Source: Promethearchaeati archaeon (GTDB taxonomy: Archaea; Asgardarchaeota; Heimdallarchaeia; JABLTI01). Taken from it: 18,844 bases of DNA. The notes below the pieces were generated by a model, which worked only from the letters and a program-made list of their open reading frames with translations, had not been told where the DNA came from and searched no databases. Below, one piece after another: positions 277-17,810 of this stretch. How positions within the stretch are numbered: the first letter of the stretch is position 1; each line of letters opens with the position of its first letter. The stretch covers positions 1 to 18,844 of the forward strand of contig JABLTI010000055.1 in assembly GCA_013166835.1 (NCBI GenBank). The letters are read 5' to 3'. Made by a program: the position numbers and the translations under genes.

Positions 277-320
277 CGGACTGCTAGCCCTTCAAGAAGA
301 AGTGTGAGTTCTGAGCATCA
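277..320 (+). repeat. Dispersed repeat copy R1 (right part)
   Basis: CGGACTGCTAGCCCTTCAAGAAGAAGTGTGAGTTCTGAGCATCA, nearly identical to 2266-2309. Confidence 0.95.
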
Positions 321-384
321 TTATTTTTTGAAAATCATTTTTGTCACCATAATTTATTTTACTATAAAGCAATAATTATCTAAT

Positions 385-1215
385 ATGGATATTCTTAACG
401 AAATAGAACAGATTGACTCTCAAATTCAGAAAGTAAAAAAAATCCCATCAGATATTGATAATATCTTTTATAGATTAAGAGGACAAGGGGAAGATCGAAA
501 GCTTACATTTTATACTTATAATATAGTTCATAGACTAGCTGTGTCAGCATTCGTTTGGATAGTTATTCTTCTTCTTAATTATGCTGCATTTCATTATGAA
601 AGATTTTTTCTAGGAGTATCTATTTCAGTTATATTAATATTATTAATATTTACACCAATAAGAACTTGGGTTCTAGATTTTAAATCTGACAAAGTTTATT
701 CAATTTTTAAAATTATGTGGATTCCAATAGTAAGAAAAGAATATTCAAAGAAATCATTTTGGAACTCAAAAATAGAAGTAATATTTTATGTATTCTATTA
801 TGAAAAATACATAAGTGAAAAAGAATCTCCTTATGAAATGGAGAAGTATTATGAAAGTCTGTTGTCTATGGAAGAAGATGTGAATTACGCAATAAGAAAC
901 TCAGATTTTGCATTTGTTTATATTACTTTTATGCTTGTGAAGAAAGGTAAGGATAAAGAAATAGAATCTAGTTTACCTAGAGGGAAATTTAGCTTCTTGA
1001 ATACAAGAAAAATAAAGCAACATGAAAATCCCTTTCAAGTAATATTAATGAATTTTTTTACTGAAAAAAGACTAAAATTTCTAAAAGCATTTGTTGAATT
1101 TTTTCCACTTTCAAAACACTATTTAGATGAGAAAGATGGACCTAAAACACATAATCAATTATCCTGTAGTCTTACCAAAACTGAAACACATGTTACTGTT
1201 GAATATGAATATTAG
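385..1215 (+). CDS. Hypothetical membrane protein with two N-proximal TM helices
   Basis: 276-aa ORF with two hydrophobic segments (LAVSAFVWIVILLLNYAAF, FFLGVSISVILILLIFTPI). No family recognised. Confidence 0.75.
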   Translation: MDILNEIEQIDSQIQKVKKIPSDIDNIFYRLRGQGEDRKLTFYTYNIVHRLAVSAFVWIVILLLNYAAFHYERFFLGVSISVILILLIFTPIRTWVLDFKSDKVYSIFKIMWIPIVRKEYSKKSFWNSKIEVIFYVFYYEKYISEKESPYEMEKYYESLLSMEEDVNYAIRNSDFAFVYITFMLVKKGKDKEIESSLPRGKFSFLNTRKIKQHENPFQVILMNFFTEKRLKFLKAFVEFFPLSKHYLDEKDGPKTHNQLSCSLTKTETHVTVEYEY

Positions 1216-1391
1216 ATTTAAAATTTAACACTTCATGTTATTCTATCTGATTATCTACTTTTCAAGTCGTTCTAATATGAAAACATTTGAAAGATTAGTC
1301 ATATACTTTAACCTATCCTTGAAAATTATGAAATAAAAAAAATCAGAAATGAAGTGAAAATTTTTTTCCTTTCTTCCTTTTACTGGTTAGT

Positions 1392-1481
1392 ATTCAAGCT
1401 AGATTTCCCACCAGCATGTACTTACCACTTAAGCGTGACCTTCCCGAAATGGCCTACTAGCCCTGCAAGAAGAAATGTGTG
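1392..1481 (+). repeat. Dispersed repeat copy R2 (long, diverged, alternative tail)
   Basis: Aligns without gaps to R3 at offset 816: CCAGCATGTACTTACCACTTAAGCGTGACCTTCCCGAAATGGCCTACTAGCCCTGCAAGAAGAAATGTG. Confidence 0.9.
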
Positions 1482-1490
1482 CGAGAACTT

Positions 1491-1821
1491 CTATAACAAT
1501 TTTTTTAAAATTTGAATGAGAACAGGAATATCTTTTCCTGGTTTACCAATCATCCTGCTTTCAAGAGCTGTTTGTTTATTCCTGGGATGAAAATGATGTG
1601 GTTTAGAAGAAACATTCCACTTGTCATCATAATTATCATATCTTATTCGATCAAATTTCTTCTGAGAAAATAAAATCTGGTAAGAATATTCATCGAAATC
1701 ATTGTAACGAATGTAAAGTATGAATTAATATGATTTCATAGATCTCTGATAAAAATTGATTAATCAGTAATTCACGAGCGCGTAGAAGCTTTATTCGAGC
1801 ATTAATTTTGGTTTCCCTCAA
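1491..1821 (-). pseudogene. Frameshifted TumE/DUF6516-like toxin gene
   Basis: TTG at 1821 gives MRETKINARIKLLRARELLINQFLSEIYE... and stops at 1699. A second frame from about 1718 reads LYIRYNDFDEYSYQILFSQKKFDRIRYDNYDDKWNVSSKPHHFHP...LIQILKKLL* (TAG 1493-1491), carrying the RYDN...HHxH signature. Not in the ORF track. Confidence 0.65.
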
Positions 1822-1823
1822 TG

Positions 1824-2057
1824 TCAGCTTAGTTTCTTTAGTAAATTCTGAAGTTTCTCCTCTTCACTTACTAATTGCTTCAATTCAATCGCATCATTTT
1901 CAGCTTCTAGTAAGATTCCTTCTTTTGCTTTTTGTAAGAATTCTTCAATTGATTTTTCCTTCCATCTTGAGAGGATATCTTCTATGATTGATTGAATACG
2001 TCTTAGTTTGTAGGTTATTAATTCTTCAGCTACTTCTTTTTTCAAACGTACATCCAT
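1824..2057 (-). CDS. Small helical protein, putative antitoxin of the downstream toxin-like gene
   Basis: 77-aa charged helical ORF whose stop is 2 nt from the start of the toxin-like gene, the usual type II TA layout. Confidence 0.65.
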   Translation of the reverse strand: MDVRLKKEVAEELITYKLRRIQSIIEDILSRWKEKSIEEFLQKAKEGILLEAENDAIELKQLVSEEEKLQNLLKKLS

Positions 2058-2096: not shown

Positions 2097-2207
2097 TATT
2101 CTTAAATATGTTTTATTTGGTTTTCAAGATGGTGACTGTTACGTGTGTTGTTGGACGAAGGTTCCAATACAAGATCGGTTTGAAAGGTTGTGGTGTACGC
2201 GTCGAGT

Positions 2208-2310
2208 CTTCGGGCGGGATGCTCAACCAGCAGGTCCTTCCCTCTTAAGCGTGTCTTTCCCGAACCGGTCTGCTAGCCCTTCAAGAAGAAGTGTGAGTCC
2301 TGAGCATCAA
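2208..2310 (+). repeat. Dispersed repeat copy R3 (most complete, with internal inverted repeats)
   Basis: CTTCGGGCGGGATGCTCAACCAGCAGGTCCTTCCCTCTTAAGCGTGTCTTTCCCGAACCGGTCTGCTAGCCCTTCAAGAAGAAGTGTGAGTCCTGAGCATCAA. GATGCTCA (2218-2225) is the reverse complement of TGAGCATC (2301-2308). Confidence 0.97.
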
Positions 2311-2316
2311 TCATTA

Positions 2317-3153
2317 CTAAATTTTCTTTTTCACTGGAACAGGTCTAATGTTTTTACTGGATTTGGAACTTGTTTTAGACTTCTTTGAAACTGGTTTCTT
2401 TTTCACCACTGGTTTAGGTTTAAGAGAGCTACTTGTTGTTGTTTTCCTTTTTGTAGTATGAACTCTACTTGGTTTAGATGATACAGTTGATCTTGGAGGT
2501 AATTTTGGAACTACTTTCTTTTGCTTTGGTTTTGTAGTTGTGCTTCTTACTTTAGGCTTGCTAGATGAAACTTGGCTTCTTGATTTCACCTTAATTGGTT
2601 TCTTTACACTAGTTTTCTTCTTCACATGTAGTTTACTAACTTGACTTCTTGGCTTTACCTGAGATGATTTTGAGGAAGTTTTAGTTGACAATTTAGAAAT
2701 CGGTTTAGCAGGTCTTTTTTGAGTTGTTGTTATCTTTACTTGTTTTTTCATCGGTCTAGCTAATGTTGGTCGTTGACCAGGCTTTCTAGAACTAGGTTTA
2801 GATTTGATTCTCCCAACTGTTCTTGAAACCCTAACTTTGCTTTTCTTCTTTTTAGAATTCAACTCTTTGATCCGAATAATAGCATATCCTGCTTCCTCTC
2901 TAACTTTATCATCTCTATCTTTGTTTAAAGCAAGCTTCAAAGAAGCTAATGCTCTAGTATCTCCAATTTTTGCTAATGCTTTTGCAGAATTCTTTCTAAC
3001 ATATCTATCTGGATCTGATTTTAAAACAGAAACTAATGCCCCTACAGCTCTTTTGTTACCTGACTCTCCTAGATTCCAAGCTGCTTTCTTGCGCACTCCG
3101 ATATCCTTACTTCTCAAATTTTGAATTTCTTTTTCAATGGAAACTTTTTGCAT
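2317..3153 (-). CDS. HEAT-repeat (PBS lyase-like) protein with a long Lys/Ser/Pro-rich basic tail
   Basis: The first ~95 aa have VRKKAAWNLG / VRKNSAKALAKIG / VREEAGYAI repeats. The remaining ~180 aa are low-complexity K/S/P/T/V. Confidence 0.85.
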   Translation of the reverse strand: MQKVSIEKEIQNLRSKDIGVRKKAAWNLGESGNKRAVGALVSVLKSDPDRYVRKNSAKALAKIGDTRALASLKLALNKDRDDKVREEAGYAIIRIKELNSKKKKSKVRVSRTVGRIKSKPSSRKPGQRPTLARPMKKQVKITTTQKRPAKPISKLSTKTSSKSSQVKPRSQVSKLHVKKKTSVKKPIKVKSRSQVSSSKPKVRSTTTKPKQKKVVPKLPPRSTVSSKPSRVHTTKRKTTTSSSLKPKPVVKKKPVSKKSKTSSKSSKNIRPVPVKKKI

Positions 3154-3263: not shown

Positions 3264-3293
3264 TTAAAGAAGAAGTATGAGTCCTATGCAGCA
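3264..3293 (+). repeat. Dispersed repeat copy R4 (short, diverged right end)
   Basis: TTAAAGAAGAAGTATGAGTCCTATGCAGCA versus consensus TTCAAGAAGAAGTGTGAGTCCTGAGCATCA. Confidence 0.8.
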
Positions 3294-3464
3294 AAATTTG
3301 ATATATTTAGATAATTGTGATTTTAGTCTAGGCTCAATTCAATTGATTAGAAAACTGTAAGAACTTTTTCCATAATAACTAAAAAAGAAAACAAAAATCG
3401 AAAGAAGTGTATTTGAAGACTAACAAATACTAAACTTCTTTTCATTTTCACTAAAAATACTGTA

Positions 3465-4115
3465 CTATAATTTACTAGATATTTCTTTTAACGTCTCTAA
3501 GATTTTGGACAGCAAATCCTCCTCATCAAGTGAAGATGCTATTTCAGTATCAGCAGTAATTGCTGCCTGTCCTTTCATTTTAGAAAGAATACCTCGAATC
3601 TTATCAGTGTAACTACTAACATCCATTACACCTTCAAGTCTTTGTTCTGGATGAGATTTATCTCCACCTTGACCAGCAGTTTCAATATTGATGGTTCCAA
3701 AATTATTACCACCAATAATTCGATCAAGAATACCTCTACGCATAACAAAATTTGTTATGTTTCGATAAGGGACGATTTTAGTTCTTTTGATTAAAAATCC
3801 TCTATTAACTATAATTTCTTGGGTTGTTAATGCATAATTAATTGAATTGTAGTATGGAAATATAAAAATTATTCCAATAATATAAACTGGTACCATTACT
3901 CCCGCGGTAATGCTACTAAAAAGAACCACTACACGCGTGACATCTTTCGCTTCCAAAATTATAGAGATACAGGATGCTACAATGATTGCTATCATTGCTA
4001 TCCAAATTAATGTCCATAAAATTATCATTTTTGTAATAAATTTTCTATCTGGTAGGAATTCATCTAAAACTTTCTGTTTTCCTACTCCAAAGATTTCAGT
4101 TTTGTTTTCAGTCAT
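3465..4115 (-). CDS. Membrane protein with a bacterial PH domain (bPH_2 / YdbS-like)
   Basis: Two TM helices followed by YALTTQEIIVNRGFL...VPYRNITN...RGILDRIIG...GTINIETAG, the typical bPH_2 pattern. Confidence 0.85.
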   Translation of the reverse strand: MTENKTEIFGVGKQKVLDEFLPDRKFITKMIILWTLIWIAMIAIIVASCISIILEAKDVTRVVVLFSSITAGVMVPVYIIGIIFIFPYYNSINYALTTQEIIVNRGFLIKRTKIVPYRNITNFVMRRGILDRIIGGNNFGTINIETAGQGGDKSHPEQRLEGVMDVSSYTDKIRGILSKMKGQAAITADTEIASSLDEEDLLSKILETLKEISSKL

Positions 4116-4174
4116 TTTATATCTATGATGATATTTCCTAATCTGAAATATAAGTCATTTTGAAAAGTAGACTT

Positions 4175-4188
4175 GTCAAACTCTTGAC
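4175..4188. promoter_or_regulatory. Palindrome GTCAA-N4-TTGAC in the divergent promoter, candidate operator
   Basis: Inverted repeat between the divergent starts at 4115 and 4281. The adjacent gene has an ArsR-like wHTH. A second palindrome, TCCTTA-T-TAAGGA, lies at 4206-4218. Confidence 0.35.
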
Positions 4189-4280
4189 TAGTTCTGTTGT
4201 CTTAATCCTTATTAAGGAAAAGACCTTTTGTCAATCATCTCCTATATTTCTAATCTTTACTAGTTACTAAGGGATTAACG

Positions 4281-5222
4281 ATGCAAGATACCGAACTATC
4301 TGTTGAATCAGAATATGTGCTTCGAGCAATTTCACATGAACTTCGACGGAAAATGCTGTTTCTAATTCGAGATAATACAAGTCAGAGTTACACTGAACTT
4401 TTAAGGAAGCTATGGCTTTCAACTGGTAAATTAAACTTCCATCTCAAGCAATTAACAGGGATTATAGAAAAGCAAGAAGATGGCTTTTATGTTTTAACCA
4501 AAATTGGAGAGCAAGCTGTTAATATTCTCGAGCAAATTAATTCAATGAGTGAGAATAAAGAACAAGTTGAGATTCTGAAAAAAATCAGTATTAGTACTTC
4601 ACTCAAACAATTTAACCCCGCACCTGAGATAAAACGTAAATGGTATTTTTGGGCTATAGTAATTTATCTTTTTGCTATTTGGTGTCCTGTGATAGTAACT
4701 GTGAGTGTTTTAGATTTGAATTTCCTCAATGTACTCCAAACAGGCAAAGCTTCGTTAAGGATTCTGGCCAATGATGGAGTACTCACAGGTATAATATTGC
4801 TGCTTATATTTCTGACTTGTTTTCTCTTAGCGAAATATCATAAAACAATATCATATGAAATACTTGATACCGAGATTGCGATTGTTAAAGGATTATTTGT
4901 GAAAACTCGAGCAATCATACCATTCAGAACTATAACAAATCTTGTGATTAAACAGGGACCAATTGATCTTCTCTTAGGTATTTCTGAAGTTATAATACAA
5001 ACAGCTGGTGAATCAGCAAAAGCAGAAGCTGAGGGAAAGATTGTAGGTATGTATTATGCAGAAGATTTAATTGAAGAGATTTTAAATCTAGTTAGACTTC
5101 TAGATCCACCAACCTATTTACGAGATAAAGTACCATTAACAAAGTCACCAAAGAATATAACTGCAATTTACTCACAGATTCTATCAGAGCTGCAAAAAAT
5201 AGATGAGAAGTTAACAGAGTAA
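4281..5222 (+). CDS. ArsR-like winged-HTH + 2 TM + bPH_2 fusion protein
   Basis: N-terminal AISHELRRKML...SYTELL...STGKLNFHLKQL...YVLTKIG wHTH, two TM helices, then IPFRTITN...QGPIDLLLG...IQTAG bPH_2. Confidence 0.85.
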   Translation: MQDTELSVESEYVLRAISHELRRKMLFLIRDNTSQSYTELLRKLWLSTGKLNFHLKQLTGIIEKQEDGFYVLTKIGEQAVNILEQINSMSENKEQVEILKKISISTSLKQFNPAPEIKRKWYFWAIVIYLFAIWCPVIVTVSVLDLNFLNVLQTGKASLRILANDGVLTGIILLLIFLTCFLLAKYHKTISYEILDTEIAIVKGLFVKTRAIIPFRTITNLVIKQGPIDLLLGISEVIIQTAGESAKAEAEGKIVGMYYAEDLIEEILNLVRLLDPPTYLRDKVPLTKSPKNITAIYSQILSELQKIDEKLTE

Positions 5223-5225
5223 TCA

Positions 5226-5255
5226 TGAAGAAGAAGTGTGTGACCTGAGCATCAA
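5226..5255 (+). repeat. Dispersed repeat copy R5 (right end)
   Basis: TGAAGAAGAAGTGTGTGACCTGAGCATCAA begins a few nt after the stop of 4281..5222 and is followed by a T-tract. Confidence 0.88.
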
Positions 5256-5678
5256 TATTTTTTGATTTTTTATAAAGTTATCTTTCAGCAAGTTTAGTGA
5301 AAGGGTTTAAAAAAAGGAATATTTCACATAATATTGGAAGCTTTATAATCACAGAGAAAAGCTTGTTACACACTGTCTGGAGGACAACTGAAATAATGAT
5401 TGACATGGATTTTTTATTAGTTCAAACAAGAAAGCAGCAAAACCTCTTGATTATTGTGAGATTCTAGTGGCAAGACAGCTCCTAAACTAACTTCCTATCT
5501 TGAGGGATTTGTCGGTTTTAATTTGGGTTAATCAAAGAAGTTGGATTGAACGTTCTGTCTATTTGGTTTTTTTAAGAACCTTGAGATATTGCTAGATATG
5601 TTGCCATTATTGGTTCTTTTTCAAAACTAAGCAAGAACATCTCCTAACTGTTGAATTAATCCCCAATATTATTCCAGT

Positions 5679-6767
5679 TTGGAGAGTGAAAGAAATTTGG
5701 CTAAAATAAAAGAAAAAACAAAAAAAGTTAGTGATTTCAAAGAAAATAATGAACTAGATGATGGAAAAGAACAAGAATCCATTATTGTTGTAGATGAAGT
5801 ATTTGATATTCTCCGTGTCGAGGATATTGAAAAGGTTGATCGAATAAAAGCTACCAAGAAAATAAAAGGAGTAACTCGAACAACTCGAGCAGTGGAACGA
5901 CCTGAAAAACTAATGATATCAAGAGCTAGTAATAAATATTACACAGCAGAAGATTTCGATCCATCCTTTATGCCAATGCAAGAGCAAGAAATAGATTATC
6001 AAAAACTTAGAAGTGAATTGATAAACTATAGAGCAGTTACTGACTTGGTAGCTGAGATCAACTCCGGTAAAGAAGCATCCATCTATTCTGCTCATCTAAA
6101 TGGTGCACCACTCATTGTGAAAATGTTCAGATTGCAACTAACATCACATAACAAAGCTAAAAGACGTCGTGTTGGTAATCCACTTACAAGAGCAACATCC
6201 TATGCGGAAACGGAATATTTCTTCATGAGCAAAGCATACAGAGCAGGACTTAATGTTCCAACTCCCGCAATGAAGATAAACAATATCATCCTTATGCAAT
6301 TCATTGGAACAGATTGGGCTCCAGCACCACAATTGAGAAAAGTGATCCTAGAAGAACCTGAACTAATGTTCGACAAGATTGTAGAACAACTCAAAATAAT
6401 GTATCAGAAAGCTAAACTAATACATGGTGATTTCTCAGAATATAATATACTGGTACATGAGAATAAACCAATTATTATAGACTTTCCACAAGCAATTGAT
6501 ATGAGCTTAGTTGGTAATCGCAGTGAAAATAGAATAAACAGTCATTTACAGGTATTACAGAAAGACATTCAAACAATCATAAATTACTTTGAGAAACAAT
6601 ACAACCTACAAGCTAGTTTTAAAGAAATATATCGATACGTTGCTGGTTTCGATGCTAGAAGAGAAAGAATAGATTTTACTATAGAAGAGATTGAGGAACA
6701 AATCAAACTACAGAAAATGATGGTACCAAGAGCAGAATTAGGAGATTTAGATGTACGAGGTAAGTAG
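5679..6767 (+). CDS. rio1: RIO1-family atypical Ser/Thr kinase
   Basis: SGKEASIY P-loop, GLNVPTP, ILMQFIG, LIHGDFSEYNIL catalytic loop and IIDFPQA motifs. The TTG start is uncertain. Confidence 0.9.
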   Translation: MESERNLAKIKEKTKKVSDFKENNELDDGKEQESIIVVDEVFDILRVEDIEKVDRIKATKKIKGVTRTTRAVERPEKLMISRASNKYYTAEDFDPSFMPMQEQEIDYQKLRSELINYRAVTDLVAEINSGKEASIYSAHLNGAPLIVKMFRLQLTSHNKAKRRRVGNPLTRATSYAETEYFFMSKAYRAGLNVPTPAMKINNIILMQFIGTDWAPAPQLRKVILEEPELMFDKIVEQLKIMYQKAKLIHGDFSEYNILVHENKPIIIDFPQAIDMSLVGNRSENRINSHLQVLQKDIQTIINYFEKQYNLQASFKEIYRYVAGFDARRERIDFTIEEIEEQIKLQKMMVPRAELGDLDVRGK

Positions 6768-6827
6768 CCAAAATCCTCACACTTTTTACATTAGATTATT
6801 CTTTCTCCTCAATATTTTTTTCAAAAA

Positions 6828-6860
6828 AGGATTTCTAACCTTTAAAGAAAAAGTGTGAGT
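6828..6860 (+). repeat. Dispersed repeat copy R6 (diverged, alternative tail)
   Basis: CTAACCTTTAAAGAAAAAGTGTGAGT aligns without gaps to CTAGCCCTTCAAGAAGAAGTGTGAGT. Confidence 0.7.
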
Positions 6861-6947
6861 AGAGACTCTATTTTTTTATTGAGATTTTATAAATTCTTAA
6901 TAACTGATAAGAGAATGATATAGCTAAAGTTATTGGAGTAAAAATCA

Positions 6948-7187
6948 ATGAATTCTGAATTTGGGACTGCATTAAGGATTAAGCTTCTTAAAGAAGAATT
7001 TTTACGTCTAATCAAATTATCTCAGAGGGAAATTATATATAGAGTGAAAAAAACGCACCTATTTGCTTTTGATGGTTTTGTATTTTATTGTGAAGAATGT
7101 GAGGATAGAGATTTCGATACTGTAATCGTTGGTTCAGAATTATCAAATATAACATGGTTCTTTGAAAAGGATAGAAAGAAAAAATAA
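6948..7187 (+). CDS. Small hypothetical protein
   Basis: 79-aa ORF with GGAG upstream and one CxxC (CEEC). It is the only ORF between R6 and R7. Confidence 0.6.
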   Translation: MNSEFGTALRIKLLKEEFLRLIKLSQREIIYRVKKTHLFAFDGFVFYCEECEDRDFDTVIVGSELSNITWFFEKDRKKK

Positions 7188-7206
7188 TAATACTTCATTC
7201 ATTCTT

Positions 7207-7309
7207 CTTCAAGCGAATAGTTTAGCAGGTAGGTATTTCCTGTTTCAGCGTGTCCTTCCCGAACCGGACTTCTAGACCTTAAAGAGGAAGTTTGAGTCCT
7301 GAGCATCAA
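7207..7309 (+). repeat. Dispersed repeat copy R7 (full length, left part diverged)
   Basis: Same length as R3 with no gaps: ...AGCGTGTCCTTCCCGAACCGGACTTCTAGACCTTAAAGAGGAAGTTTGAGTCCTGAGCATCAA. Confidence 0.93.
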
Positions 7310-7407
7310 TTGTTTTTCTTATGTGAAAACTATGATAGCATTTTGAATTTTTAAGAACAATCAATGCCAAAACTAATTACATGGTTAAATTAGATAAGAA
7401 GTGAGGT

Positions 7408-9188: not shown

Positions 9189-9303
9189 AATCTATTCAAG
9201 CATTAATTTATTTAAAATAATAATTCACATTATGAGGTCACATCTTGTGAGTTGTAAAAAACTGTAATTTTCACTTAATTGTCATTTCACACGTATTGTA
9301 TGC

Positions 9304-9611: not shown

Positions 9612-10790
9612 ATGAAAAAATTTCCTTCATACCTTGGTGTTAAAGCTTTTGGTGTCAAAATCGGTGCTGTTCTCCCACGAGATAATATCGTAGAAGAGGT
9701 CTGTAAAGCAGTTAAAAAATGCCATGAAGACCATCTAATCGATGACCGGGACATCGTTTGTGTTAAGGAGTCAATCGTTGCGCGAGCACAGAATAATTTC
9801 ATCTCTAAGGAAGACATTGGGATAGAAGTTAGGGAAAAATTAAAGCTATCCAAGACGGACACGCTTGGTATACTTTTTCCGATAGCAAGCCGGAATCGGT
9901 TTGTACCTATCTTGGAGGGACTGGTGCTAGCTGTCCCCAAGGGCAAAGTAGTCATCCAATTTTCTTATCCTAGAGATTGTGTGGGAAATCAGATCGCCCC
10001 TGAGGAGTTAGAGGAGCAACTAGGTATCAATCTTAGTAGAGAGGAGATACTTGCAGATCAATTACAAAAATATGATTTTCGTCACCCAGCCACGGGTGTG
10101 AATTATTTGAGCTTATATGAAGAGATCATCAAAAAAGCTGATGTTGAAGCAGAGATTTTTCTATCTAACAACACAAGTAAAATACTCGACCATAAACCAA
10201 ATGGTATCATTGTGGCGTGCATCCATGAAAGGGATAAAGTGCTTGAAAGAATAAATAAGGTTTTTGAAAATGCTATCACGATGCAGGATCTATTCAATGA
10301 TAGCAAAAAAGCAGTCTGGTCGGAGTGGGGGCTTCTCGGAACGAACATGTATTCTGAGGACAAAATAAAGCTACCTCCGAGGGAGTCTTTTAAAGTTGCT
10401 AAGGCCATCCAGAAAGCAATATACAACACTACTGGAAAAAAGGTGGAGGTACTGATATACGGTGATGGAGCGTATATGGATCCTTCAACGGGGATATATG
10501 AGTTGGCTGATCCAGTCTGTTCCTTCGGGCACAGCGACGGGCTGAATAGAAAACGGCAAGGAATAAAATACAAATTTTTTGTTGGTACCTTACATGCCCA
10601 AGGAAAAAAGAAGGGAGAGATTGAAGAAATCATCGATGAACAAAAACAGAAAATGTATGAGATAGATAATATCTCTATGGAGGGCACCACACCCAGAAAA
10701 CTTGAAGACATTGCAAGCAGCTTAGCAGATCTCGTGACTGGTTCCGCAGATGCTGGCACACCCATAGTAATTATTAAAGACCTCTTATAA
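9612..10790 (+). CDS. Coenzyme F420-0:L-glutamate ligase (CofE)-like family protein
   Basis: DIVCVKESIVARAQ, SRNRF, YGDGAYMDP..GIYELADP and GTTPR...SLADLVTGSADAGTPIV, which I recall from the ~400-aa F420-ligase-like family common in anaerobic bacteria. Substrate not determinable. Confidence 0.75.
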   Translation: MKKFPSYLGVKAFGVKIGAVLPRDNIVEEVCKAVKKCHEDHLIDDRDIVCVKESIVARAQNNFISKEDIGIEVREKLKLSKTDTLGILFPIASRNRFVPILEGLVLAVPKGKVVIQFSYPRDCVGNQIAPEELEEQLGINLSREEILADQLQKYDFRHPATGVNYLSLYEEIIKKADVEAEIFLSNNTSKILDHKPNGIIVACIHERDKVLERINKVFENAITMQDLFNDSKKAVWSEWGLLGTNMYSEDKIKLPPRESFKVAKAIQKAIYNTTGKKVEVLIYGDGAYMDPSTGIYELADPVCSFGHSDGLNRKRQGIKYKFFVGTLHAQGKKKGEIEEIIDEQKQKMYEIDNISMEGTTPRKLEDIASSLADLVTGSADAGTPIVIIKDLL

Positions 10791-10918: not shown

Positions 10919-10968
10919 AGAACGTTTCTTCTTTAGATTTTTCACGTCATTGTATTGCCAAGGATTCG

Positions 10969-11056
10969 CTTCAGATGAGATGCTCAGTCAGTAGATACTT
11001 CCTACTTAAGCGTGTTCTTCCCGAACCGGACTGCTAATCTTGAAAGAATAAGTGAG
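10969..11056 (+). repeat. Dispersed repeat copy R10 (left and middle intact, right end replaced)
   Basis: CTTCAGATGAGATGCTCAGTCAGTAGATACTTCCTACTTAAGCGTGTTCTTCCCGAACCGGACTGCTAATCTTGAAAGAATAAGTGAG aligns without gaps to R3 at offset 8761. Confidence 0.93.
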
Positions 11057-11178
11057 ATAAAAAATCATCTTTATTGTTTTAACTACTGATATTTTAACAT
11101 TAATGTCAATTTACGAAGAAAATTAATTAAAATGAATCTATTATATAATTACTTGACAGATGCTAGGTTGAGAATATC

Positions 11179-11634
11179 ATGAGAATGGGGAAAATAACTG
11201 CTAAAGCAGTAATTGAATGTGTAAAAGCAATAAACTATCTTTCATTAGATTCAAGAAAATCAGTTACTTCTGAGAAAGTACATAAGTATCTTAGAATGAG
11301 TTTTGAGTATGTTAATGATGCAATTGAAGTAGCTATAATAATGCAATTTATCAATAATGGTGAATCACTAACATTATCTTCTGCTGGACAGAAATTGATT
11401 AGTTCAACAACAAATCAATCACAAATATTATTCAGAAAACAATTGCTAAAATTGCCAAACATTAATCAATTGATTGTATTAATTTCTGAAGGAAATAGTT
11501 TCGAAGATGCAGTTAATAAAATTATAGTTTCCTATAATATCCAAGGGAAAGAAAAGGAGATATTATATTCTTTTAGAAATTTGATGTTGTTTGCTAATAT
11601 GATTGGACCTGAAGGAACCATAGAAAAGGAATAA
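11179..11634 (+). CDS. Hypothetical protein, probable winged-helix fold
   Basis: 151-aa ORF. AIIMQFI...LTLSSAGQKLI resembles a wHTH wing. No family confidently recognised. Confidence 0.65.
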   Translation: MRMGKITAKAVIECVKAINYLSLDSRKSVTSEKVHKYLRMSFEYVNDAIEVAIIMQFINNGESLTLSSAGQKLISSTTNQSQILFRKQLLKLPNINQLIVLISEGNSFEDAVNKIIVSYNIQGKEKEILYSFRNLMLFANMIGPEGTIEKE

Positions 11635-11677: not shown

Positions 11678-11734
11678 TGTCTTGCTGAAATGGTCTTTTA
11701 GCCCTTCAAGAAGAAGTGTGAGTCCTGAGCATCA
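11678..11734 (+). repeat. Dispersed repeat copy R11
   Basis: TAGCCCTTCAAGAAGAAGTGTGAGTCCTGAGCATCA is identical to R3, with a decayed left extension TGTCTTGCTGAAATGGTCTT. Confidence 0.95.
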
Positions 11735-11786
11735 GTTTTTAGGAGCAAGAAATTTAATAGTAATAAAAAAAATAACATAAATTATA

Positions 11787-12824
11787 ATGATCTTAAATAA
11801 TGCTTTAGTCAAGGAAATTATCAATAGTAATTATGATTTGGGTGAGATAGTATCAGTAAATCCTCTAGAATCGGGTCATGAAAGCGATAATATTAAAGTT
11901 ACCACTGAAAGGGGAGATTACGTGATAAAATACTTCCCTCAAGAACCTGAGCATCTCAGAGAGGTAATTATTCTTCAAGATTTGCTTTTTTCAAAGGGAG
12001 TCAAACTTCCACAACCAATCAAAACAATTACCGATGATTTTGTTGTCGAATATAGTCCAACAGAAACCATAGCAATACAATCGTTTGTGTCTGGAGAAGC
12101 CATTGTTTTTCGCGATAAAGATCCTGAGAAAATGTTTAGTTTGATGAGCTGGTTTGGTAAGTGTCTTGGAGAGTTTCATTATCTTTCAAAATCCATAAAC
12201 GAATCCGAAATAAGGCAAAGAATACCGAGAGAGGATTTCTTTGATCAAACTTCCGGGATGCAATGGGTGAAGGAACAATATGAAAAAGCAGAGACGCAAC
12301 TTCCCCAACATGAAAAAAACAAAGCAATTCTAAAGGAATTTGAAATTTACCTGAAAGAAATAGATGAGTTATTCAGTAGTGATATGACATTAGGAATTAT
12401 TCATACTGATTTAAAACCTGGGGATTTCTTTGCTGAAAATAATGAGTTAACTGGTATCCTTGATTTCAATGGAGCGCATTATTCCTACATAATAAATGAA
12501 CTTGGCACTTGGGTCATGTATTCTTCACTCTACAAACCTAAAAATAAAACCAATTTTCAAACATTCATCAAATTTTATTTGGAACACTCAAAAATCCCAA
12601 TGCAAGAACTAATATTCATACCTATGCTTCTGAAAGGGAGAGCTTTCGTTCAATTCTTCTACTTTGCTTACCGTATCCACAATAACATCACTCAAGGACT
12701 TGGTGAAGGTGAAACCAATCTTAAAGGGTTTGAGGATGGAATTAACTTAGTAGAGGCATCTTTGAAAATTCCGAGAACCTACTTCTATGATCTCGCTGTG
12801 CATGTTTTGGAGAAACCAAAGTAG
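11787..12824 (+). CDS. APH / type II homoserine kinase-like phosphotransferase
   Basis: YVIKY, LPQPI, LGEFH, Brenner-type IHTDLKPGDFF and GILDF motifs. Confidence 0.85.
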   Translation: MILNNALVKEIINSNYDLGEIVSVNPLESGHESDNIKVTTERGDYVIKYFPQEPEHLREVIILQDLLFSKGVKLPQPIKTITDDFVVEYSPTETIAIQSFVSGEAIVFRDKDPEKMFSLMSWFGKCLGEFHYLSKSINESEIRQRIPREDFFDQTSGMQWVKEQYEKAETQLPQHEKNKAILKEFEIYLKEIDELFSSDMTLGIIHTDLKPGDFFAENNELTGILDFNGAHYSYIINELGTWVMYSSLYKPKNKTNFQTFIKFYLEHSKIPMQELIFIPMLLKGRAFVQFFYFAYRIHNNITQGLGEGETNLKGFEDGINLVEASLKIPRTYFYDLAVHVLEKPK

Positions 12825-12874
12825 CGTTATTATTCTTCAAAAGCTTCATATTCTGTTAACAATAATGAAAATAT

Positions 12875-13714
12875 ATGTCAAAATGGCCTGATGCTATCCC
12901 TCGAGAGTCAAACAAAAACCTAGAGGAAATTGAGAGCATCTCAAACTGGTTTGCAATTTATAGAATAAACAAAGATACTTTCGCCTTATTGGAACCATTT
13001 CACATTGAAGAAGTTGTTTCTTATCTGTTTATTGGTGAAGAGCAAGCCTTACTGTTTGATACAGGAATGGGTGTTGTTAGTATTAAACAAGAAGTTGAAG
13101 CTCTTACTGAGAAGGAATTAATTGTCTTAAATAGTCACTCCCACTATGATCATGTTGGAGGAAATTATGAATTCACGAATGTTTGGGCTTTCAACAATGA
13201 TTGGGAAATAAAACGAATGAAAAACGGTGATTATTCACAGAAGAGGTTCAAGAATTTTGAGGACTCAAATATTTGTACTGATTTGCCAAGTGGTTTTGAT
13301 AAGAATAGCTATCACATCAAACCTTCAGTAGTTTCCAAGATAATTAAGGATCAAGAGAGAATAGATCTCGGGAATCGAAAGCTAATTATTCATCACACAC
13401 CTGGTCATAGTCCAGCTAGCATCTGCATACAAGATTACCAATACAAGTTATTATTTACAGGTGATACTTTGTATCCCGGAGAAATGTACCTTGATCTTGA
13501 AGGATCCGATTTTGACATTTATATCAAATCAATAAACTACCTAAATGATTTGTATGAAGAATTACTCTTTCTTTGTCCCGGACACAATGAAGCTCTTATC
13601 TCAAGAGATTATTTGCGAGACTTCAAGAATGCTTGTGAAAAAGTCAAATCAATAATACCTCAAAACCCTCCTCATAGAAATATCGATTTTGGTAATTTTA
13701 GTATCAGTTTTTAG
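12875..13714 (+). CDS. Metallo-beta-lactamase-fold hydrolase
   Basis: LFDTG, SHSHYDHVGG, HTPGHS, LFTGD and CPGH metal-binding motifs. Confidence 0.92.
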   Translation: MSKWPDAIPRESNKNLEEIESISNWFAIYRINKDTFALLEPFHIEEVVSYLFIGEEQALLFDTGMGVVSIKQEVEALTEKELIVLNSHSHYDHVGGNYEFTNVWAFNNDWEIKRMKNGDYSQKRFKNFEDSNICTDLPSGFDKNSYHIKPSVVSKIIKDQERIDLGNRKLIIHHTPGHSPASICIQDYQYKLLFTGDTLYPGEMYLDLEGSDFDIYIKSINYLNDLYEELLFLCPGHNEALISRDYLRDFKNACEKVKSIIPQNPPHRNIDFGNFSISF

Positions 13715-14259
13715 TAATTTGAATTCTTATTTACAATCGTTTGTATTTTCTTAATTAATATAGCTAGATCTTCTTTCTGTTCAATGTTAAATTCATTTAC
13801 AATGATACTCTTCTCTTTGTGTTGCTCTAAATACTTGAAGATAAGAGGGCGATATTCTTCATGAAATAATCTTATCACTTTAAAATTATCTTCGATATCC
13901 CCTTCGTAAGAACAGTTTTCGCTAACGTAAGGATTTGGTCTGATTTTTTCCTCATCCATTCGTTGTTGTGCGTGTTTGAAGCAGGTCTCTAGCAGTGGAT
14001 CTATGAAGATAATTATCTCAGCTCGTTCAAATCGACTATCATAAGTTGATTTGTAAGCAACACCGTCTAGTATCCATTGTTCTTTATCAATGATTTCTTG
14101 ATGTTTGGCTACGAATTCCTCTTCTGGGGTTCTTTCCCATCCTGGCTTCCAGAGGATTTTATCAAGATGATAGACTGGCAATTGTAATTCTTTCCCAAGT
14201 AGAACTGCTAATGTAGATTTACCCGCCCCGGAATTTCCCATAATTGTTATTCTCGTCAT
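13711..14259 (-). CDS. FlaR / topology-modulation-like P-loop kinase
   Basis: ITIMGNSGAGKSTLA, YHLDKILWKPGW and WILDG. Start moved to ATG 14259 (MTRITIMG). Confidence 0.85.
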   Translation of the reverse strand: MTRITIMGNSGAGKSTLAVLLGKELQLPVYHLDKILWKPGWERTPEEEFVAKHQEIIDKEQWILDGVAYKSTYDSRFERAEIIIFIDPLLETCFKHAQQRMDEEKIRPNPYVSENCSYEGDIEDNFKVIRLFHEEYRPLIFKYLEQHKEKSIIVNEFNIEQKEDLAILIKKIQTIVNKNSNY

Positions 14260-14373
14260 TTCTTTCTTTTCCAATTTTTTACAAAAATAACTAATTCTCA
14301 AATTAGGTTTTCGTTTATTTAAACAATATTGAGATTTCTCTTCAGCTTCTTTTAATTAAAAGTAGCAAAAAAA

Positions 14374-14420
14374 GAAACAGACTTCAAGCCCTTCATGAAG
14401 AAGTGTGAGTCCTGGGCATC
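14374..14420 (+). repeat. Dispersed repeat copy R12
   Basis: GAAACAGACTTCAAGCCCTTCATGAAGAAGTGTGAGTCCTGGGCATC. Confidence 0.92.
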
Positions 14421-14434
14421 CTATGGATAATCCC

Positions 14435-15100
14435 TTACTCATCTTTAATTTGAATTGGTTGTTTTGCGAGAGTGACTCGAGAGCTAATTTCAATACTGTT
14501 GATGTAATAGACTGCACCTACGACCTCTGTTCCGTGGCCAATCGTCACGTCCCGACCCTTAACATCCCCTGCAACAAAAGTCTTTTTGATATTAACTTCA
14601 TTATCAGCAACAATGTTGCCATGAACTTTATATGGATGTTTAATAGGACGTCTGTCTATAGGCCTGCCGATAAACACGTCTTCTGCCTTGATATTTCCTT
14701 CAACAGTTGTATTTCCACGTAAAATTACCTCTTTTTTAGACATGAGGTTTCCTTGGATATTTGTTAAGCCAGAAATTTTAACCCCTTCAAGAGCTTCTAA
14801 TTGTTTCCCTGTTTTTAGCGTTCCTGACTTTGAATATTTTCCTTCAATGAGAATTCCACCGTCAATAGTAGTTGATCCCGCTGATCTTGCATCTCCTTCA
14901 ACGGTAAGAGAACCTTTTAGTCTAAATGTTCCAGAACATTGAAAATCTCCAAGAACAGATAAATCCCCTGACCCTTTTAAGCTGCCTGAAGATTTAAATT
15001 CCTCACATTCCAAATTCCCATTTATTCTCGTTGAACCAGATGCAACGAGACTTTCATTTATTTTTCCTTCCGGAAGTGTTGATGAACCAGATACTCTCAT
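14435..15100 (-). CDS. Polymer-forming cytoskeletal (bactofilin-like, YhbE/YhbF-type) beta-helix protein
   Basis: Repeated SGS/xxxGxL and IxGNI beta-solenoid units along the whole 221 aa. AGGAG lies upstream. Confidence 0.8.
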   Translation of the reverse strand: MRVSGSSTLPEGKINESLVASGSTRINGNLECEEFKSSGSLKGSGDLSVLGDFQCSGTFRLKGSLTVEGDARSAGSTTIDGGILIEGKYSKSGTLKTGKQLEALEGVKISGLTNIQGNLMSKKEVILRGNTTVEGNIKAEDVFIGRPIDRRPIKHPYKVHGNIVADNEVNIKKTFVAGDVKGRDVTIGHGTEVVGAVYYINSIEISSRVTLAKQPIQIKDE

Positions 15101-15174: not shown

Positions 15175-15214
15175 TTCTAAACCTTCAAGTTGCAGTGGGA
15201 GTCCTGAGCATCAA
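15175..15214 (+). repeat. Dispersed repeat copy R13 (its TCA is the stop of the next gene)
   Basis: TTCTAAACCTTCAAGTTGCAGTGGGAGTCCTGAGCATCAA. TCA at 15211-15213 is the TGA stop of 15211..15660(-). Confidence 0.88.
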
Positions 15215-15660
15215 TATATAGTTATTTTTTGTTTTTTCGCTAAGTCGAGTAAGTGTTGGTATTGCCAAATTCTTTCATCGGCAATAACGGTTGCTGCATA
15301 ATTGGCAGCATGGATAGCGTGACCCGCAACATGGGCGGTTGCTGCTGCGTGTCCTGCTGCACGAGCAACTGCACGTGCATCACATTCTTCAATATCACGG
15401 GCAGCAGCGTGAGCAGCGAATGCAGTAGTACGAACCTCCCCTACAGATAGCTTACCATGCACCCAAGCTCGTCCTGCTTCTATTGCTTTTCTAGGTCGAT
15501 CATCTTTCGGATACTTTTCTTCAAAATATGATAATATATGCTCCGCACAGTCAGTCGCCCAGATTACTAATGTTCTGTGGTCTATTTTACTCGTTAACTC
15601 TGTGATTGCATTTTTTATGTCCTCTTCCCCTTTTTTATCAACAAAATTAACTTTTTTCAA
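15211..15660 (-). CDS. Imm5-like putative immunity protein
   Basis: WATDCAEHIL..FE...P.DDRPRKAIEAGRAW..G followed by the Ala-rich AFAAHAAAR...ARAAGHAAATAHV..HA pattern. Confidence 0.85.
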   Translation of the reverse strand: MKKVNFVDKKGEEDIKNAITELTSKIDHRTLVIWATDCAEHILSYFEEKYPKDDRPRKAIEAGRAWVHGKLSVGEVRTTAFAAHAAARDIEECDARAVARAAGHAAATAHVAGHAIHAANYAATVIADERIWQYQHLLDLAKKQKITIY

Positions 15661-15721
15661 TCTAATCCTCTTTATAATTGTGTAAGTAAATTTGAATAAT
15701 ATATGCTTTTTTTCATTTTGA

Positions 15722-17692
15722 TTAAATGTCTATTATTGGTAATCCTTTTTCTTCCAAATTTGGTCTCATATCTTTCTGTCTAACTGTATCTGTTAGTCCA
15801 TAGTCTCTTGTCAAATATTCATGATAAATATCAAAATTAACAGCCATTTTGTTGTATAACATATCTCTTATTTTCAATAACTCATTAGGCAAACAATCTA
15901 CGAAATACTCTCCATTTGAATTCAAACAATAATCGTTTCTATCTAGATATCTAATAGCGAATTCTCCTTTCTTCTTGGTTCTTATAGAGACATGTTTCTT
16001 ACGTTGATCCACTAATCCCAGAGTAACAAGTTTAATCATTAATGAGTTAAATCGCGATGAATAATCACTTGTTAGATAACCAAAATCTGAGCAATTAAAA
16101 GAAATTTGATTTTTAAAATCAAATATATAATCTTGTAAGCGTTTAACACCTGTTGCCCACAATCTACTTATTTCAAATTTCTCTTTTGTAAACTTTCTTA
16201 TTGCAGCTAGAACAACAAGTACTAAATCCTCTCCAATTATTTCTTTCTTCTTAATGAGTTCTTTTCTAATTTCCAGATTTTGTGCTCTCAATTCCAATTT
16301 TAAATTTTGAATTATTTCTTGTGTATTGTTTCCTCTCTCATCGCCGTATACCGCTATGAATGAGCTAGCATATGAGTCTTTTAGTATGCCATTTACAATA
16401 TTTGATTTACTATGTAAAGCGAATGTTACTAGTTCAGATTTATACTCAGTACTAGCTACTCTTTCCTCGAAATCATACACTAACTTAATTGTAAGAGGTG
16501 GAGGTTTGACATAAACAAAATCAATAAGAAAATTAGAGTTCAATTTCTCGTTTATATTCCTTTCAAAAATCATCTTCCTATCTTTATATTTCGTAAATAA
16601 ATAGAAATCCAGTCGTTCTTTTGGTGCTAAATCAAACATTTCTATCTTTACGATTTCTTCCAAGAGTTTGCCTTTTAATGCTCTACTTAGATAATCAGCT
16701 TGAATATCATTTGTGGCGTCTTTTGTAATATTTGATACTAAATCATAATCAGTCCAATTTTCATGTAATTTTTGTATAAGTTGCCTATATTTTGTTTCAT
16801 CTAATAATTCCTTTTTCTTTCTAAGAAAATTCTGTGTACTACACATTAACATTTGATTAGCAACACGATTTTTTGTGTCTTGTTGAATTATCGAAATTAG
16901 TTGTTTTCTCGAGAGCAAAAGATTCTCAACAACAAATAATTTGTCTGGATTGAACATAATTTCAATATTTGAGATCAAATCATCTTGCATGCTTTTTTGC
17001 AGTCTGATCCTAAATGAATCCATAATGGAATAAATGTCAATATTAGCCGGTAATCCACAATGATAATTATCTCGAATAATGTAATCTACTTTATCAAAAT
17101 CTAAATCACCATTGAGTAATGGATAGAGAATAGCTATCGGTTTTGGTATTTTATCTAATTTGTATGCTAGGAAATTAGCAATGTTCATAGGAGTGCAAAT
17201 CTCTTCATCTTTGAGAATTCGTTTCAATTCTTTGTTTTTTCTTATTAGTTTCTGTGTATAGTCATCGTGGGAATAATTCTTACCTGGATATAATTCCGGA
17301 TCTCTTTCGAAAACCCATTCAATAGCATGAGAAAATGGTGGATGGCCTAAGTCATGCAGTAAAGCAGCAATTCTGATGAATTGTAAAGTTTTGTTGTAGC
17401 CATTAGTTACACTGTGTTTATCCTTCAAAATTGATTCAGCATGTTCTTTCAGTTTCTCAATTTTACTGGCAATAAGATACGCAACATGCATTGTACCTAT
17501 TGAATGCTCAGAACGCGTATGGTTAGCCCCAGAGAAACTTATAGATGCTAAACTCATCTGTTTGATATTTTTCAATCTTCTAAAAATATCTGATTCGATA
17601 ATGTCCTTCTCTAACTGTGTTATTGGTATGTTCTTCCATACTGGATCATAAATATACTCAACGAATTCTAAATTTTCTGAAATTTTGCCCAC
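15722..17692 (-). CDS. SAMHD1/dNTPase-like HD-domain phosphohydrolase with a long C-terminal extension
   Basis: IYDPVW, RLKNIKQM, HTRSEHSIG, AALLHDLGHPPFSH and DFDKVDYIIRD. GTG start, 656 aa. Confidence 0.9.
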   Translation of the reverse strand: MGKISENLEFVEYIYDPVWKNIPITQLEKDIIESDIFRRLKNIKQMSLASISFSGANHTRSEHSIGTMHVAYLIASKIEKLKEHAESILKDKHSVTNGYNKTLQFIRIAALLHDLGHPPFSHAIEWVFERDPELYPGKNYSHDDYTQKLIRKNKELKRILKDEEICTPMNIANFLAYKLDKIPKPIAILYPLLNGDLDFDKVDYIIRDNYHCGLPANIDIYSIMDSFRIRLQKSMQDDLISNIEIMFNPDKLFVVENLLLSRKQLISIIQQDTKNRVANQMLMCSTQNFLRKKKELLDETKYRQLIQKLHENWTDYDLVSNITKDATNDIQADYLSRALKGKLLEEIVKIEMFDLAPKERLDFYLFTKYKDRKMIFERNINEKLNSNFLIDFVYVKPPPLTIKLVYDFEERVASTEYKSELVTFALHSKSNIVNGILKDSYASSFIAVYGDERGNNTQEIIQNLKLELRAQNLEIRKELIKKKEIIGEDLVLVVLAAIRKFTKEKFEISRLWATGVKRLQDYIFDFKNQISFNCSDFGYLTSDYSSRFNSLMIKLVTLGLVDQRKKHVSIRTKKKGEFAIRYLDRNDYCLNSNGEYFVDCLPNELLKIRDMLYNKMAVNFDIYHEYLTRDYGLTDTVRQKDMRPNLEEKGLPIIDI

Positions 17693-17738
17693 TTTCCTAT
17701 AATCTAACTAATTATTAAAAATTACAAATATTAATCTT

Positions 17739-17810
17739 CTTTAAATTGAATGCTCTGTTATCATGTACTTTCCCCTTCGAAGTAACCTTTCCGCACCGAA
17801 CTTTAAGACC
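17739..17810 (+). repeat. Dispersed repeat copy R14 (heavily decayed left and middle)
   Basis: ATGCTCTGTTATCATGTACTTTCCCCTTCGAAGTAACCTTTCCGCACCGAACTTTAAGACC aligns without gaps to the consensus at roughly 60% identity by hand count. Confidence 0.65.

Follow-up and report, generated by a model that had tools for sequence, protein, structure and literature searches.

Gene units bounded by 23S rRNA-tail repeats form polar, reshuffled arrays in one genus of Heimdall (Asgard) archaea

A polar repeat array confined to one genus

Contig JABLTI010000055.1 of a Promethearchaeati archaeon (Heimdallarchaeia; assembly GCA_013166835.1) is divided into units of one to three genes by a short repeat that always faces the same way. 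The stretch analysed (positions 1–18,844) is referred to here as the window, and the questions it raises are what the repeat is and whether it marks a platform for gene capture. An initial annotation, made from the letters alone, had proposed an integron-like cassette array built on a non-attC site. Comparison with related genomes shows that the repeat forms clustered, polar arrays specific to one Heimdall (Asgard) genus, and that units bounded by copies of the tail of the 23S rRNA gene have been reshuffled without inversion. The rRNA-tail-bounded array looks like a previously undescribed integron-like gene-shuffling platform. Genomes are labelled G (G000 is the window's own), contigs C and window positions w.

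A profile was built with nhmmer from eight long copies and scanned against the genome (3.56 Mb, 260 contigs) at E ≤ 1. In the window it recovers 13 copies, at 270, 1374, 2185, 5227, 6824, 7199, 8262, 9301, 10950, 11681, 14374, 15175 and 17744, while the copy at 3264, missed by the profile, was recovered by repeat-family grouping (D2), local alignment and a fuzzy core search. These searches confirm all 14 copies of the initial annotation, every one of them on the + strand. The uniform length of about 100 bp given there did not hold, as the copies measure 25 to 185 nt and are 62–100% alike. They overlap ORF (open reading frame) ends by no more than about 5 nt and are otherwise intergenic, and by repeat-family grouping they fall into overlapping families on the + strand only. 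Spacing between the profile copies is 375–3042 nt, the copy at 3264 dividing the 3042 nt gap in two. The GC content of the window is 33.4%, against 33.7% for the genome. Contigs C112 and C215 each overlap one end of the window by 144 nt at 100% identity, so the array extends past the window, with copies of the same polarity, and reaches at least 32 kb with these two contigs included.

Across the genome the profile gave 40 matches on seven contigs (C141, 13, all +; C133, 14, all −; C217, 7, all +; C215, 3, all −; C112, C33 and C50, one each), and as the C50 match is doubtful the repeat is placed on six contigs. The clustering in a few loci that an array should show is thus present, with no spread over the whole genome. 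A search with the 27 nt core of the repeat, allowing up to 5 mismatches, found 22 matches in the genome, all on C141, C133, C217 and C112, and none in 1 Mb of shuffled sequence. Several copies have an identical 27 nt block in common.

All ten other genomes of the same genus carry the repeat, and it was found in 0 of 30 genomes from nine other genera of the class. In a pattern scan of public records, 39 of the 44 matching stretches were titled Candidatus Heimdallarchaeota archaeon. The contigs fetched hold 204 copies on 52 contigs, with a median spacing of 1206 nt (range 78 to 30573 nt). The co-orientation first noticed in the window extends to this larger set: the strand is uniform in 35 of the 36 contigs with at least two copies, and 151 of 152 adjacent pairs are on the same strand. 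Arrays are also carried by 13 independent JGI metagenome contigs, and all ten of these with two or more copies are strand-uniform; no circular contig and no recombinase was found among the 13. The sole inverted copy among the 204 lies on G008:C95 (locus L053, 5602–5666, − strand), about 5 kb upstream of the 23S rRNA gene and pointing away from it.

Four public sequencing runs were examined as Logan contigs. These match long stretches of the window spanning several copies, with 0–3 differences, and one of them bridges the junction at 2130, where copy 3 begins. Joints between copies in these contigs have sides of 25–33 nt and are cross-mappings of other copies, uninformative for or against excision or circles.

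Origin of the repeat and order of the units

The sequence of the repeat is that of the archaeal 23S rRNA gene at its 3′ end, continued by about 55 nt of the 3′ trailer. Its identity was settled by way of the 23S genes of relatives. On five contigs (G005:C98, G006:C99, G009:C20, G008:C95 and G010:C35) the archaeal large subunit (LSU) rRNA model of Rfam, LSU_rRNA_archaea, ends inside the first copy of the repeat; on G005:C98, where the first copy covers 12699–12820, the end of the model falls at 12770 of the locus. Aligned to the genuine 23S 3′ ends of G005, G006 and G009, w2130–2314 shows 82–86% identity over 185 nt. Relative to the 23S end, the longest window copy spans −132..+53 and the shortest +23..+46, and 8 of the 14 consist of trailer only. 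The window itself has no Rfam family at the gathering score, and none at E ≤ 1 over 1950–2400; the piece of 23S end present there is too short for the model to pick up.

In each of four 23S genes tested, ATGGACTTCTAGACCTTAAAGAAGAAGTGTG in the trailer pairs with CCACACTTCTTCAAGTGAAATCTAGATCTCC in the 5′ leader (−29 to −50 kcal/mol), and in two other genera the trailer is likewise a reverse complement match to its own leader. The repeat therefore represents the 3′ strand of the pre-23S processing stem, with or without the mature 3′ end. Folded as single strands, four long copies (six folds, two of the copies on both strands) gave z values of −0.91 to +1.31 against shuffles. A repeat search of the window found no close inverted repeats and no terminal inverted repeats, and ARAGORN found no tRNA in it. 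The initial annotation was therefore right that the site is non-canonical, having no Rfam family, no attC-like fold and no CRISPR (clustered regularly interspaced short palindromic repeats) character, and it missed the origin of the site in the 23S 3′ end and trailer. With that origin a second known model enters, the accretion of att sites at a stable-RNA gene. The 23S genes of the genus (Table 1) span 3259 to 4282 nt, against the 2987 positions of the model, and must therefore contain insertions (introns or expansion segments) of very different size between species.

In two relatives the arrays are physically joined to the rRNA gene. On G005:C98 the intact 23S gene is where the array starts, and from there it continues for 27 kb, up to the contig end. 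On G008:C95 at least two further copies lie downstream of the gene; on G009:C20 and G010:C35 there are no further copies in the 5–6 kb of available sequence downstream of it. As a control, the 23S end and trailer of three other genera (one represented by a closed genome) were searched for in their own genomes, and each occurred once.

The order of the units was compared by a DNA search of the relatives with the whole window. Window units are found singly in these genomes at 78–94% identity, in other orders and contexts. The units on G003:C215, for example, follow the order w9539, w2322, w7261, w12835, w14395, w11019. The metallo-beta-lactamase (MBL) gene stands beside different neighbours in G003, where it is followed by the bactofilin gene, and in G007:C154, where the bactofilin gene comes first; in the window a kinase gene lies between the two. 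The dehydrogenase unit occurs in four contexts (the window, C133, G003:C215 and G005:C38), with upstream copies of different length, and the Imm5-like and HD-domain genes are separate from each other in G007. Once the contigs were oriented by the repeat, 108 homologous blocks (300 nt or longer) had the same orientation between genomes and one was inverted. The reordering in relatives that a shuffling platform predicts is therefore present, with many breakpoints in or beside the repeat.

Parts of the copies go with particular units. Unit A and its downstream copy also occur in G005:C99 and G007:C158 at 93–94% identity, and in these three genomes the unit carries the same idiosyncratic 5′ copy part followed by a different distal part in each. 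The distal part called T4 precedes the wHTH (winged helix-turn-helix) unit in three genomes, behind three different upstream units. Two of the distal types can be matched to genuine trailers. T1 (GTGTGAGTCCTGAGCATCA) is the real 23S trailer of G005, that of G009 is T1-like, and most copies in G000, G003, G005 and G007 are of this type. T2 (GCGAGGGCCGTAGATTCTAC) is the real trailer of G008 and G010 and is found in most copies there. In the T2 genomes (arrays L112, L051, L113 and L050) the copied segment continues about 130 nt past the trailer and includes the T-rich TTATCAGTTATTTTTTCTTTTC..., so the 3′ boundary of the repeat differs between lineages; it may follow the end of the rRNA transcript.

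Within the copies, the right ends of homology blocks gather at the end of the 9-mer AAGAAGAAG, with 20 within ±5 nt of it versus 0 in the two preceding bins, in a histogram that, like the change-point test, is biased towards the point where the copy types diverge. For pairs with only the upstream unit in common (n = 16), identity falls from 0.93 to 0.78–0.83 across the copy and then to 0.76–0.59, towards background past +20, and for pairs with only the downstream unit in common (n = 5) it rises from about −12, a binned profile that does not separate site-specific from homologous recombination. Such profiles suggest crossovers in a zone of about −12 to +20, not at a point. All 19 genome matches to the distal 17-mer have a AAGAAGAAG-like 9-mer upstream (18 with two or fewer mismatches), and this 9-mer is kept even where the sequence further left is not rRNA-like. 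The minimal unit is thus 26–27 nt, consisting of AAGAAGAAG and TGTGAGTCCTGAGCATC.

Table 1. Repeat copies and gene units of the window, and 23S rRNA genes of relatives.
Feature	Position	Strand	Description
Repeat copy 1	270..334	+	trailer only, +3..+63 from 23S 3′ end; T1 distal type
Unit A	385..1215	+	276-aa ORF, no Pfam match
Repeat copy 2	1374..1490	+	23S part and proximal trailer; distal part non-T1 (GTGTGCGAGAACTTCTATAAC)
Unit	1500..2057	−	77-aa ORF (1824–2057) and broken partner frame
Repeat copy 3	2130..2314	+	longest; last ~132 nt of 23S and 53-nt trailer; T1 type
Unit	2317..3153	−	HEAT-repeat protein
Repeat copy 4	3264..3294	+	short degenerate core, +20..+49
Unit	3465..5222		divergent pair: bPH_2 protein (3465–4115, −), wHTH and bPH_2 protein (4281–5222, +)
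Repeat copy 5	5227..5262	+	minimal core only; begins 5 nt past upstream stop codon
Unit	5679..6767	+	RIO1-domain kinase
Repeat copy 6	6824..6867	+	proximal trailer; distal part decayed
Unit	6948..7187	+	79-aa ORF, no Pfam match
Repeat copy 7	7199..7315	+	23S part and trailer; T1 type
Unit	7408..8250	+	short-chain dehydrogenase (SDR)
Repeat copy 8	8262..8296	+	minimal core only
Unit	8292..9188	−	DUF1028 and TPR protein
Repeat copy 9	9301..9363	+	T3 distal type (GTGTGTGCAGTGATACTAC)
Unit	9612..10790	+	F420_ligase-family protein
Repeat copy 10	10950..11072	+	23S part and trailer; T4 distal part (GTGAGATAAAAAATCA)
Unit	11179..11634	+	151-aa wHTH-like protein
Repeat copy 11	11678..11736	+	T1 type
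Unit	11787..14301		three genes, no repeat inside: APH kinase (+), metallo-beta-lactamase fold (+), P-loop kinase-like (−)
Repeat copy 12	14374..14421	+	T1 type
Unit	14435..15100	−	bactofilin-domain protein
Repeat copy 13	15175..15215	+	T1 type
Unit	15211..17692	−	Imm5-like protein (15211–15660) and 656-aa HD-domain protein (15722–17692)
Repeat copy 14	17744..17810	+	degenerate, weak (E = 0.06); 23S part only, core lost
Unit	17833..18844	+	ABC ATPase and permease start; continues on C215 (reverse strand)
23S rRNA gene	L031 8489–12770		
23S rRNA gene	L033 5471–9545		
23S rRNA gene	L035 6184–9572		
23S rRNA gene	L053 10795–14053		

How the units may move

If arrays are reshuffled at the repeat, the units may well move in an integron-like manner, by excision and insertion at the sites through a recombinase acting in trans, a reading that we prefer but hold tentatively. 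Units would move by recombination between directly repeated sites, two copies giving a circle that carries one hybrid copy and the cargo, and the circle could re-enter at the trailer of the 23S gene or at any other copy, the 23S trailer being the putative primary insertion point. The crossover zone would lie around the junction of AAGAAGAAG and TGTG, about 32 nt past the 23S end, so that the 5′ part of a copy would stay with the left unit and the distal part with the right one. The catalyst, which is the most speculative step, would be a dedicated recombinase acting in trans. A dedicated factor is suggested by the restriction to one genus and by how sharply the minimal unit is defined, and the sole candidate found is a 352-aa XerA-like protein. 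A fuller version of this proposal describes a new gene-capture system in which the site is DNA of the pre-23S processing stem, the rRNA gene is attI-like, units carrying the site seed further growth, and the XerA-like protein, with its Cys-rich, zinc-ribbon-like insertion, is the integrase; we regard this as possible rather than likely.

The candidate is the only PF00589 protein in G000 and is encoded on C61 at 14199–15257 (L108, 2200–3258, +). Its two domains are separated by a Cys-rich insertion some 40 residues long. The best-scoring family is XerA_Arch, with 117 bits against an equivalog cut-off of 220, and integron-integrase models give 33 and 17 bits against cut-offs of 265 and 435; the best solved relative is XerA of P. 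abyssi (4a8e). Orthologues of 64–91% identity are present in six genomes of the genus and a 58-aa fragment in a seventh, the protein was not found in 3 of the 10 (incomplete assemblies), and other genera show 31% identity or less. The gene adjoins those of a small wHTH protein and an Nmad2-domain protein, and in G007 a second PF00589 frame (193 aa) lies directly upstream of it.

Other enzymes were sought in the arrays and in the 11 genomes. PF00589 has 0 matches on the array contigs of five relatives, RVT_1 is present in 0/11 genomes and Y1_Tnp above its cut-off in 0/11. IS110 occurs in one of the 11, away from the main arrays, and Resolvase only in G005, on non-array contigs. TnpB-like genes are frequent and lie off the main arrays; two are on contigs with a solitary copy (G007:C20 and G010:C10), which is taken as coincidence. 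An array-resident recombinase was also looked for among recurrent families, by clustering 437 array ORFs and comparing 27 proteins with Pfam, and all proved to be cargo.

Several results weigh against site-specific capture by a dedicated enzyme. The recombinase, HUH transposase or reverse transcriptase (RT) expected beside the arrays was not found, with no tyrosine (PF00589) or serine (PF00239) recombinase, HUH or RT on any array contig examined, and the XerA-like gene is never linked to an array. The protein is tied to the arrays by their joint restriction to the genus alone, a suggestive but weak connection given that the genomes are incomplete and related, and it may be the housekeeping Xer of the genus. 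Some junctions have no repeat, namely that of APH and MBL in the window and those of the HEAT unit in two relatives, G003 and G007. Distal to AAGAAGAAG there are at least four unrelated copy types (T1–T4), so AAGAAGAAG(Y)G is the only element common to all copies, and identity across the copy declines gradually, not in one step. The breakpoint peak is partly forced, because similarity between copy types ends at the anchor, and short copies would limit recombination of any kind to the core. On direct reading of its sequence the 27 nt unit has no dyad symmetry, and a site with neither dyad nor fold is unusual for a tyrosine recombinase. The assembly of the window's own genome has no 23S gene, so the linkage of gene and array is seen in relatives only, and along the G005:C98 array the copy scores neither rise nor fall with increasing distance from the 23S gene. 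On G008:C112 (L052, ~14780–15004) more than 200 nt of 23S end stand as a solitary copy with no obvious cassette. The gene-capture platform of the initial annotation is partly supported: the clustered, co-oriented and reshuffled units stand, and the neighbouring recombinase was not found. With no neighbouring recombinase and with repeat-less junctions, capture by a dedicated enzyme is something we infer, and homologous recombination is a live rival.

Homologous recombination by itself would treat the copies as passive homology, with the host machinery looping out circles and re-inserting them, or inserting incoming DNA. In its favour are the missing dyad symmetry, the gradual fall in identity and the variety of distal types, which leaves no site common to all copies. 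The lack of a recombinase linked to the arrays and the exact 27 nt block common to several copies also favour it; retention of orientation is what any recombination between direct repeats would give. Both homologous recombination and the 23S trailer are universal in archaea, yet arrays occur in 10/10 genomes of one genus and 0/30 of others, and three other genera, searched with their own 23S-end sequence, have none (0/3). Copies of 25–185 nt that are only 62–90% alike are poor substrates for homologous recombination, which does not predict the sharp minimal unit seen in the constant retention of the left 9-mer, and leaves the origin of the first copies unexplained. We consider it the main alternative, somewhat less probable than the reading we prefer.

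The stable-RNA origin of the repeat also raises the possibility that the arrays are a graveyard of integrative elements, in which viruses or plasmids with integrases struck the 23S 3′ end, duplicated their att site and were later deleted to remnants. The repeat resembles att sites in tRNA genes, since it comes from the 3′ part of a stable-RNA gene and its copies differ in how far they reach in the 5′ direction but stop at a fixed 3′ end; the array on G005:C98 starts at the intact gene; and T2 copies continue for about 130 nt past the trailer, which would fit the copying of whole flanks. This explanation is nonetheless improbable. The array contigs examined have no PF00589 or PF00239 match, the median unit is 1.2 kb, and small units lie intact in several genomes in other order, which decay does not predict; in viral contigs, one scan for the core pattern matched a single place, inside an ORF.

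Movement of the repeat itself between genes, as an element resembling a miniature inverted-repeat transposable element (MITE) or short interspersed nuclear element (SINE), or as a retro-copy of the pre-rRNA 3′ end, is less probable again. Variable 5′ ends and a 3′ end coinciding with a T-run that resembles the operon terminator would fit it, as would the solitary G008 copy, which lies in a variable spacer between two genes of a conserved syntenic core-genome block and is missing from the same place in G010, G009, G006 and G005. That copy could also be the seed of a new array or the relic of one. No reverse transcriptase was found in any of the 11 genomes and the copies have no terminal inverted repeats. 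They are clustered and co-oriented (151/152 pairs), not dispersed, parts of copies travel with the neighbouring genes, and what differs between genomes is the order of the units.

It is hardly credible that the arrays are canonical integrons or CALINs (clusters of attC sites lacking integron-integrases), even with their integron-like cargo (toxin–antitoxin genes, small proteins and unknowns) and with integrons and CALINs enriched in Asgard metagenome-assembled genomes (MAGs) according to the portion consulted of Ghaly et al. 2022, which describes archaeal ones (PMC9668308), since there is no hairpin, no close inverted repeat, no intI and gene orientation is mixed, or that they are an assembly artefact from rRNA fragments, since public-run contigs from all four runs agree across several copies, the same architecture recurs in 10 other assemblies and the 13 JGI contigs, and most copies differ from one another and are shorter than the k values (127, 141) in the record titles.

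Known systems and cargo

The architecture resembles both integrons or CALINs and additive islands, yet fails both definitions for want of attC, IntI and integrase-bearing units. Like chromosomal integrons and CALINs, the arrays have long series of co-oriented sites and small, heterogeneous, often toxin–antitoxin-rich units whose order is shuffled among relatives, and integron and CALIN arrays too are often far from an integrase. Sites of the attC kind are imperfect palindromes with R″/L″/L′/R′ boxes that fold into hairpins; the site here has no hairpin and no R″/R′ architecture and originates from the 23S trailer. IntI was not found, the mixed directions of the genes leave no common expression of the Pc type, and the array can start at an rRNA gene, not at attI beside intI.

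The tycheposon islands of Prochlorococcus are reportedly additive islands at tRNA and tmRNA genes with repeated partial copies of the gene. As in such islands, the repeat derives from the 3′ end of a stable-RNA gene, is co-oriented with it and varies at its 5′ end but not at its 3′ end, and the array grows beside the intact gene (here G005:C98 and G008:C95). The differences are that the target is the 23S trailer, that copies are far denser (about one per 1.2 kb, 40–60 per genome), and that the units have no integrase, the same one- to three-gene units being reshuffled.

Integrative mobile elements exploiting Xer (IMEX) use Xer/dif, and pdif modules occur on Acinetobacter plasmids, with pdif sites alternating in orientation. 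A dif-like core has two inverted arms of about 11 bp around a 6–8 bp spacer, and tandem co-oriented arrays occur at dif. The likeness to the present arrays lies in small modules without a recombinase of their own, bounded by short sites and presumably moved by a Xer-type recombinase of the host. The core here has no dif-like dyad.

Other comparisons are more distant. CRISPR arrays, whose short, near-identical repeats are regularly spaced by spacers of 25–50 nt, are unlike the present ones, in which spacing is irregular, copy length varies and protein-coding genes lie between copies. The arrays are also unlike dispersed repetitive extragenic palindromic (REP) or MITE-like repeats, as the copies are co-oriented on six contigs. 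The hypervariable region of SAR11 (Pelagibacter) is an accessory hotspot with rRNA genes that its authors liken to integron arrays; its boundaries are tRNA-anchored, and the portion of that source consulted mentions no rRNA-derived repeat between units (10.64898/2026.04.03.716430). Among Asgard elements, aloposons and HeimM2, beside a 16S gene (PMC8813620), and the Atabeyarchaeia elements (PMC11529989) belong to the same broad lineage, and one is inserted exactly beside an rRNA gene; each is a single element several kb long that brings its own machinery, and the portions consulted make no mention of rRNA-tail arrays. No description of 23S-tail repeat arrays was found in the literature, although the supplement lists of PMC8813620 and PMC9668308, which lay outside the search, could mention these MAGs.

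If units are indeed captured and shuffled at the repeat, this would be a second, independently evolved integron-like architecture, its site derived from an rRNA processing signal and not from a folded attC. It would be a cassette platform targeted to rDNA in the archaea most closely related to eukaryotes, a group whose gene flux bears on models of eukaryote origin. It would also explain tens of kb of fast-turning accessory genes, including toxin–antitoxin, immunity-like, kinase, transporter, leucine-rich-repeat (LRR) and RING-like genes. The repeat may account for part of the trouble with these MAGs, as public-run contigs break at the copies and the bin has no 23S gene. With a 27 nt minimal unit and a single candidate recombinase the proposal is directly testable, and a short, asymmetric, portable site is of interest for archaeal genetic tools.

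The cargo of the window is as heterogeneous as first annotated, with unrelated Pfam families and likely genes in both directions (10 on + and 8 on −). Cargo of sister contigs includes DUF433/DUF5615, HicA, PIN, beta-lactamase-fold, LVIVD, LRR and RING-like proteins, and the recurrent array-resident families also include sulfotransferase and ABC proteins. RING-finger-like and leucine-rich-repeat cargo is encoded at array loci L032 (15504–16568) and L051 (3200–4309); such domains are often discussed as eukaryote-like in Asgard archaea.

The toxin–antitoxin pair annotated at 1500–2057 was not confirmed, as the 77-aa ORF has no Pfam match and its partner frame (1517–1729) is interrupted by stops in the window. 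Beside the 77-aa ORF, relatives carry an intact partner ORF of 123 aa, and between 1725 and 1726 an additional 41 letters appear in the contigs of each of the four public runs (depth 88.8 of about 90, X1). These 41 nt are probably missing from the window, through an assembly variant or a real deletion. The degenerate last copy of the window (copy 14) has a complete orthologue in G007:C186. A degenerate tRNA-like sequence follows the F420-ligase-like gene at 10804–10872 (−), scoring 25.3 bits with the Rfam tRNA model against a gathering score of 29. A similar piece precedes the corresponding copy in G003:C215, and the sequence may be what is left of an att site belonging to some other kind of element.

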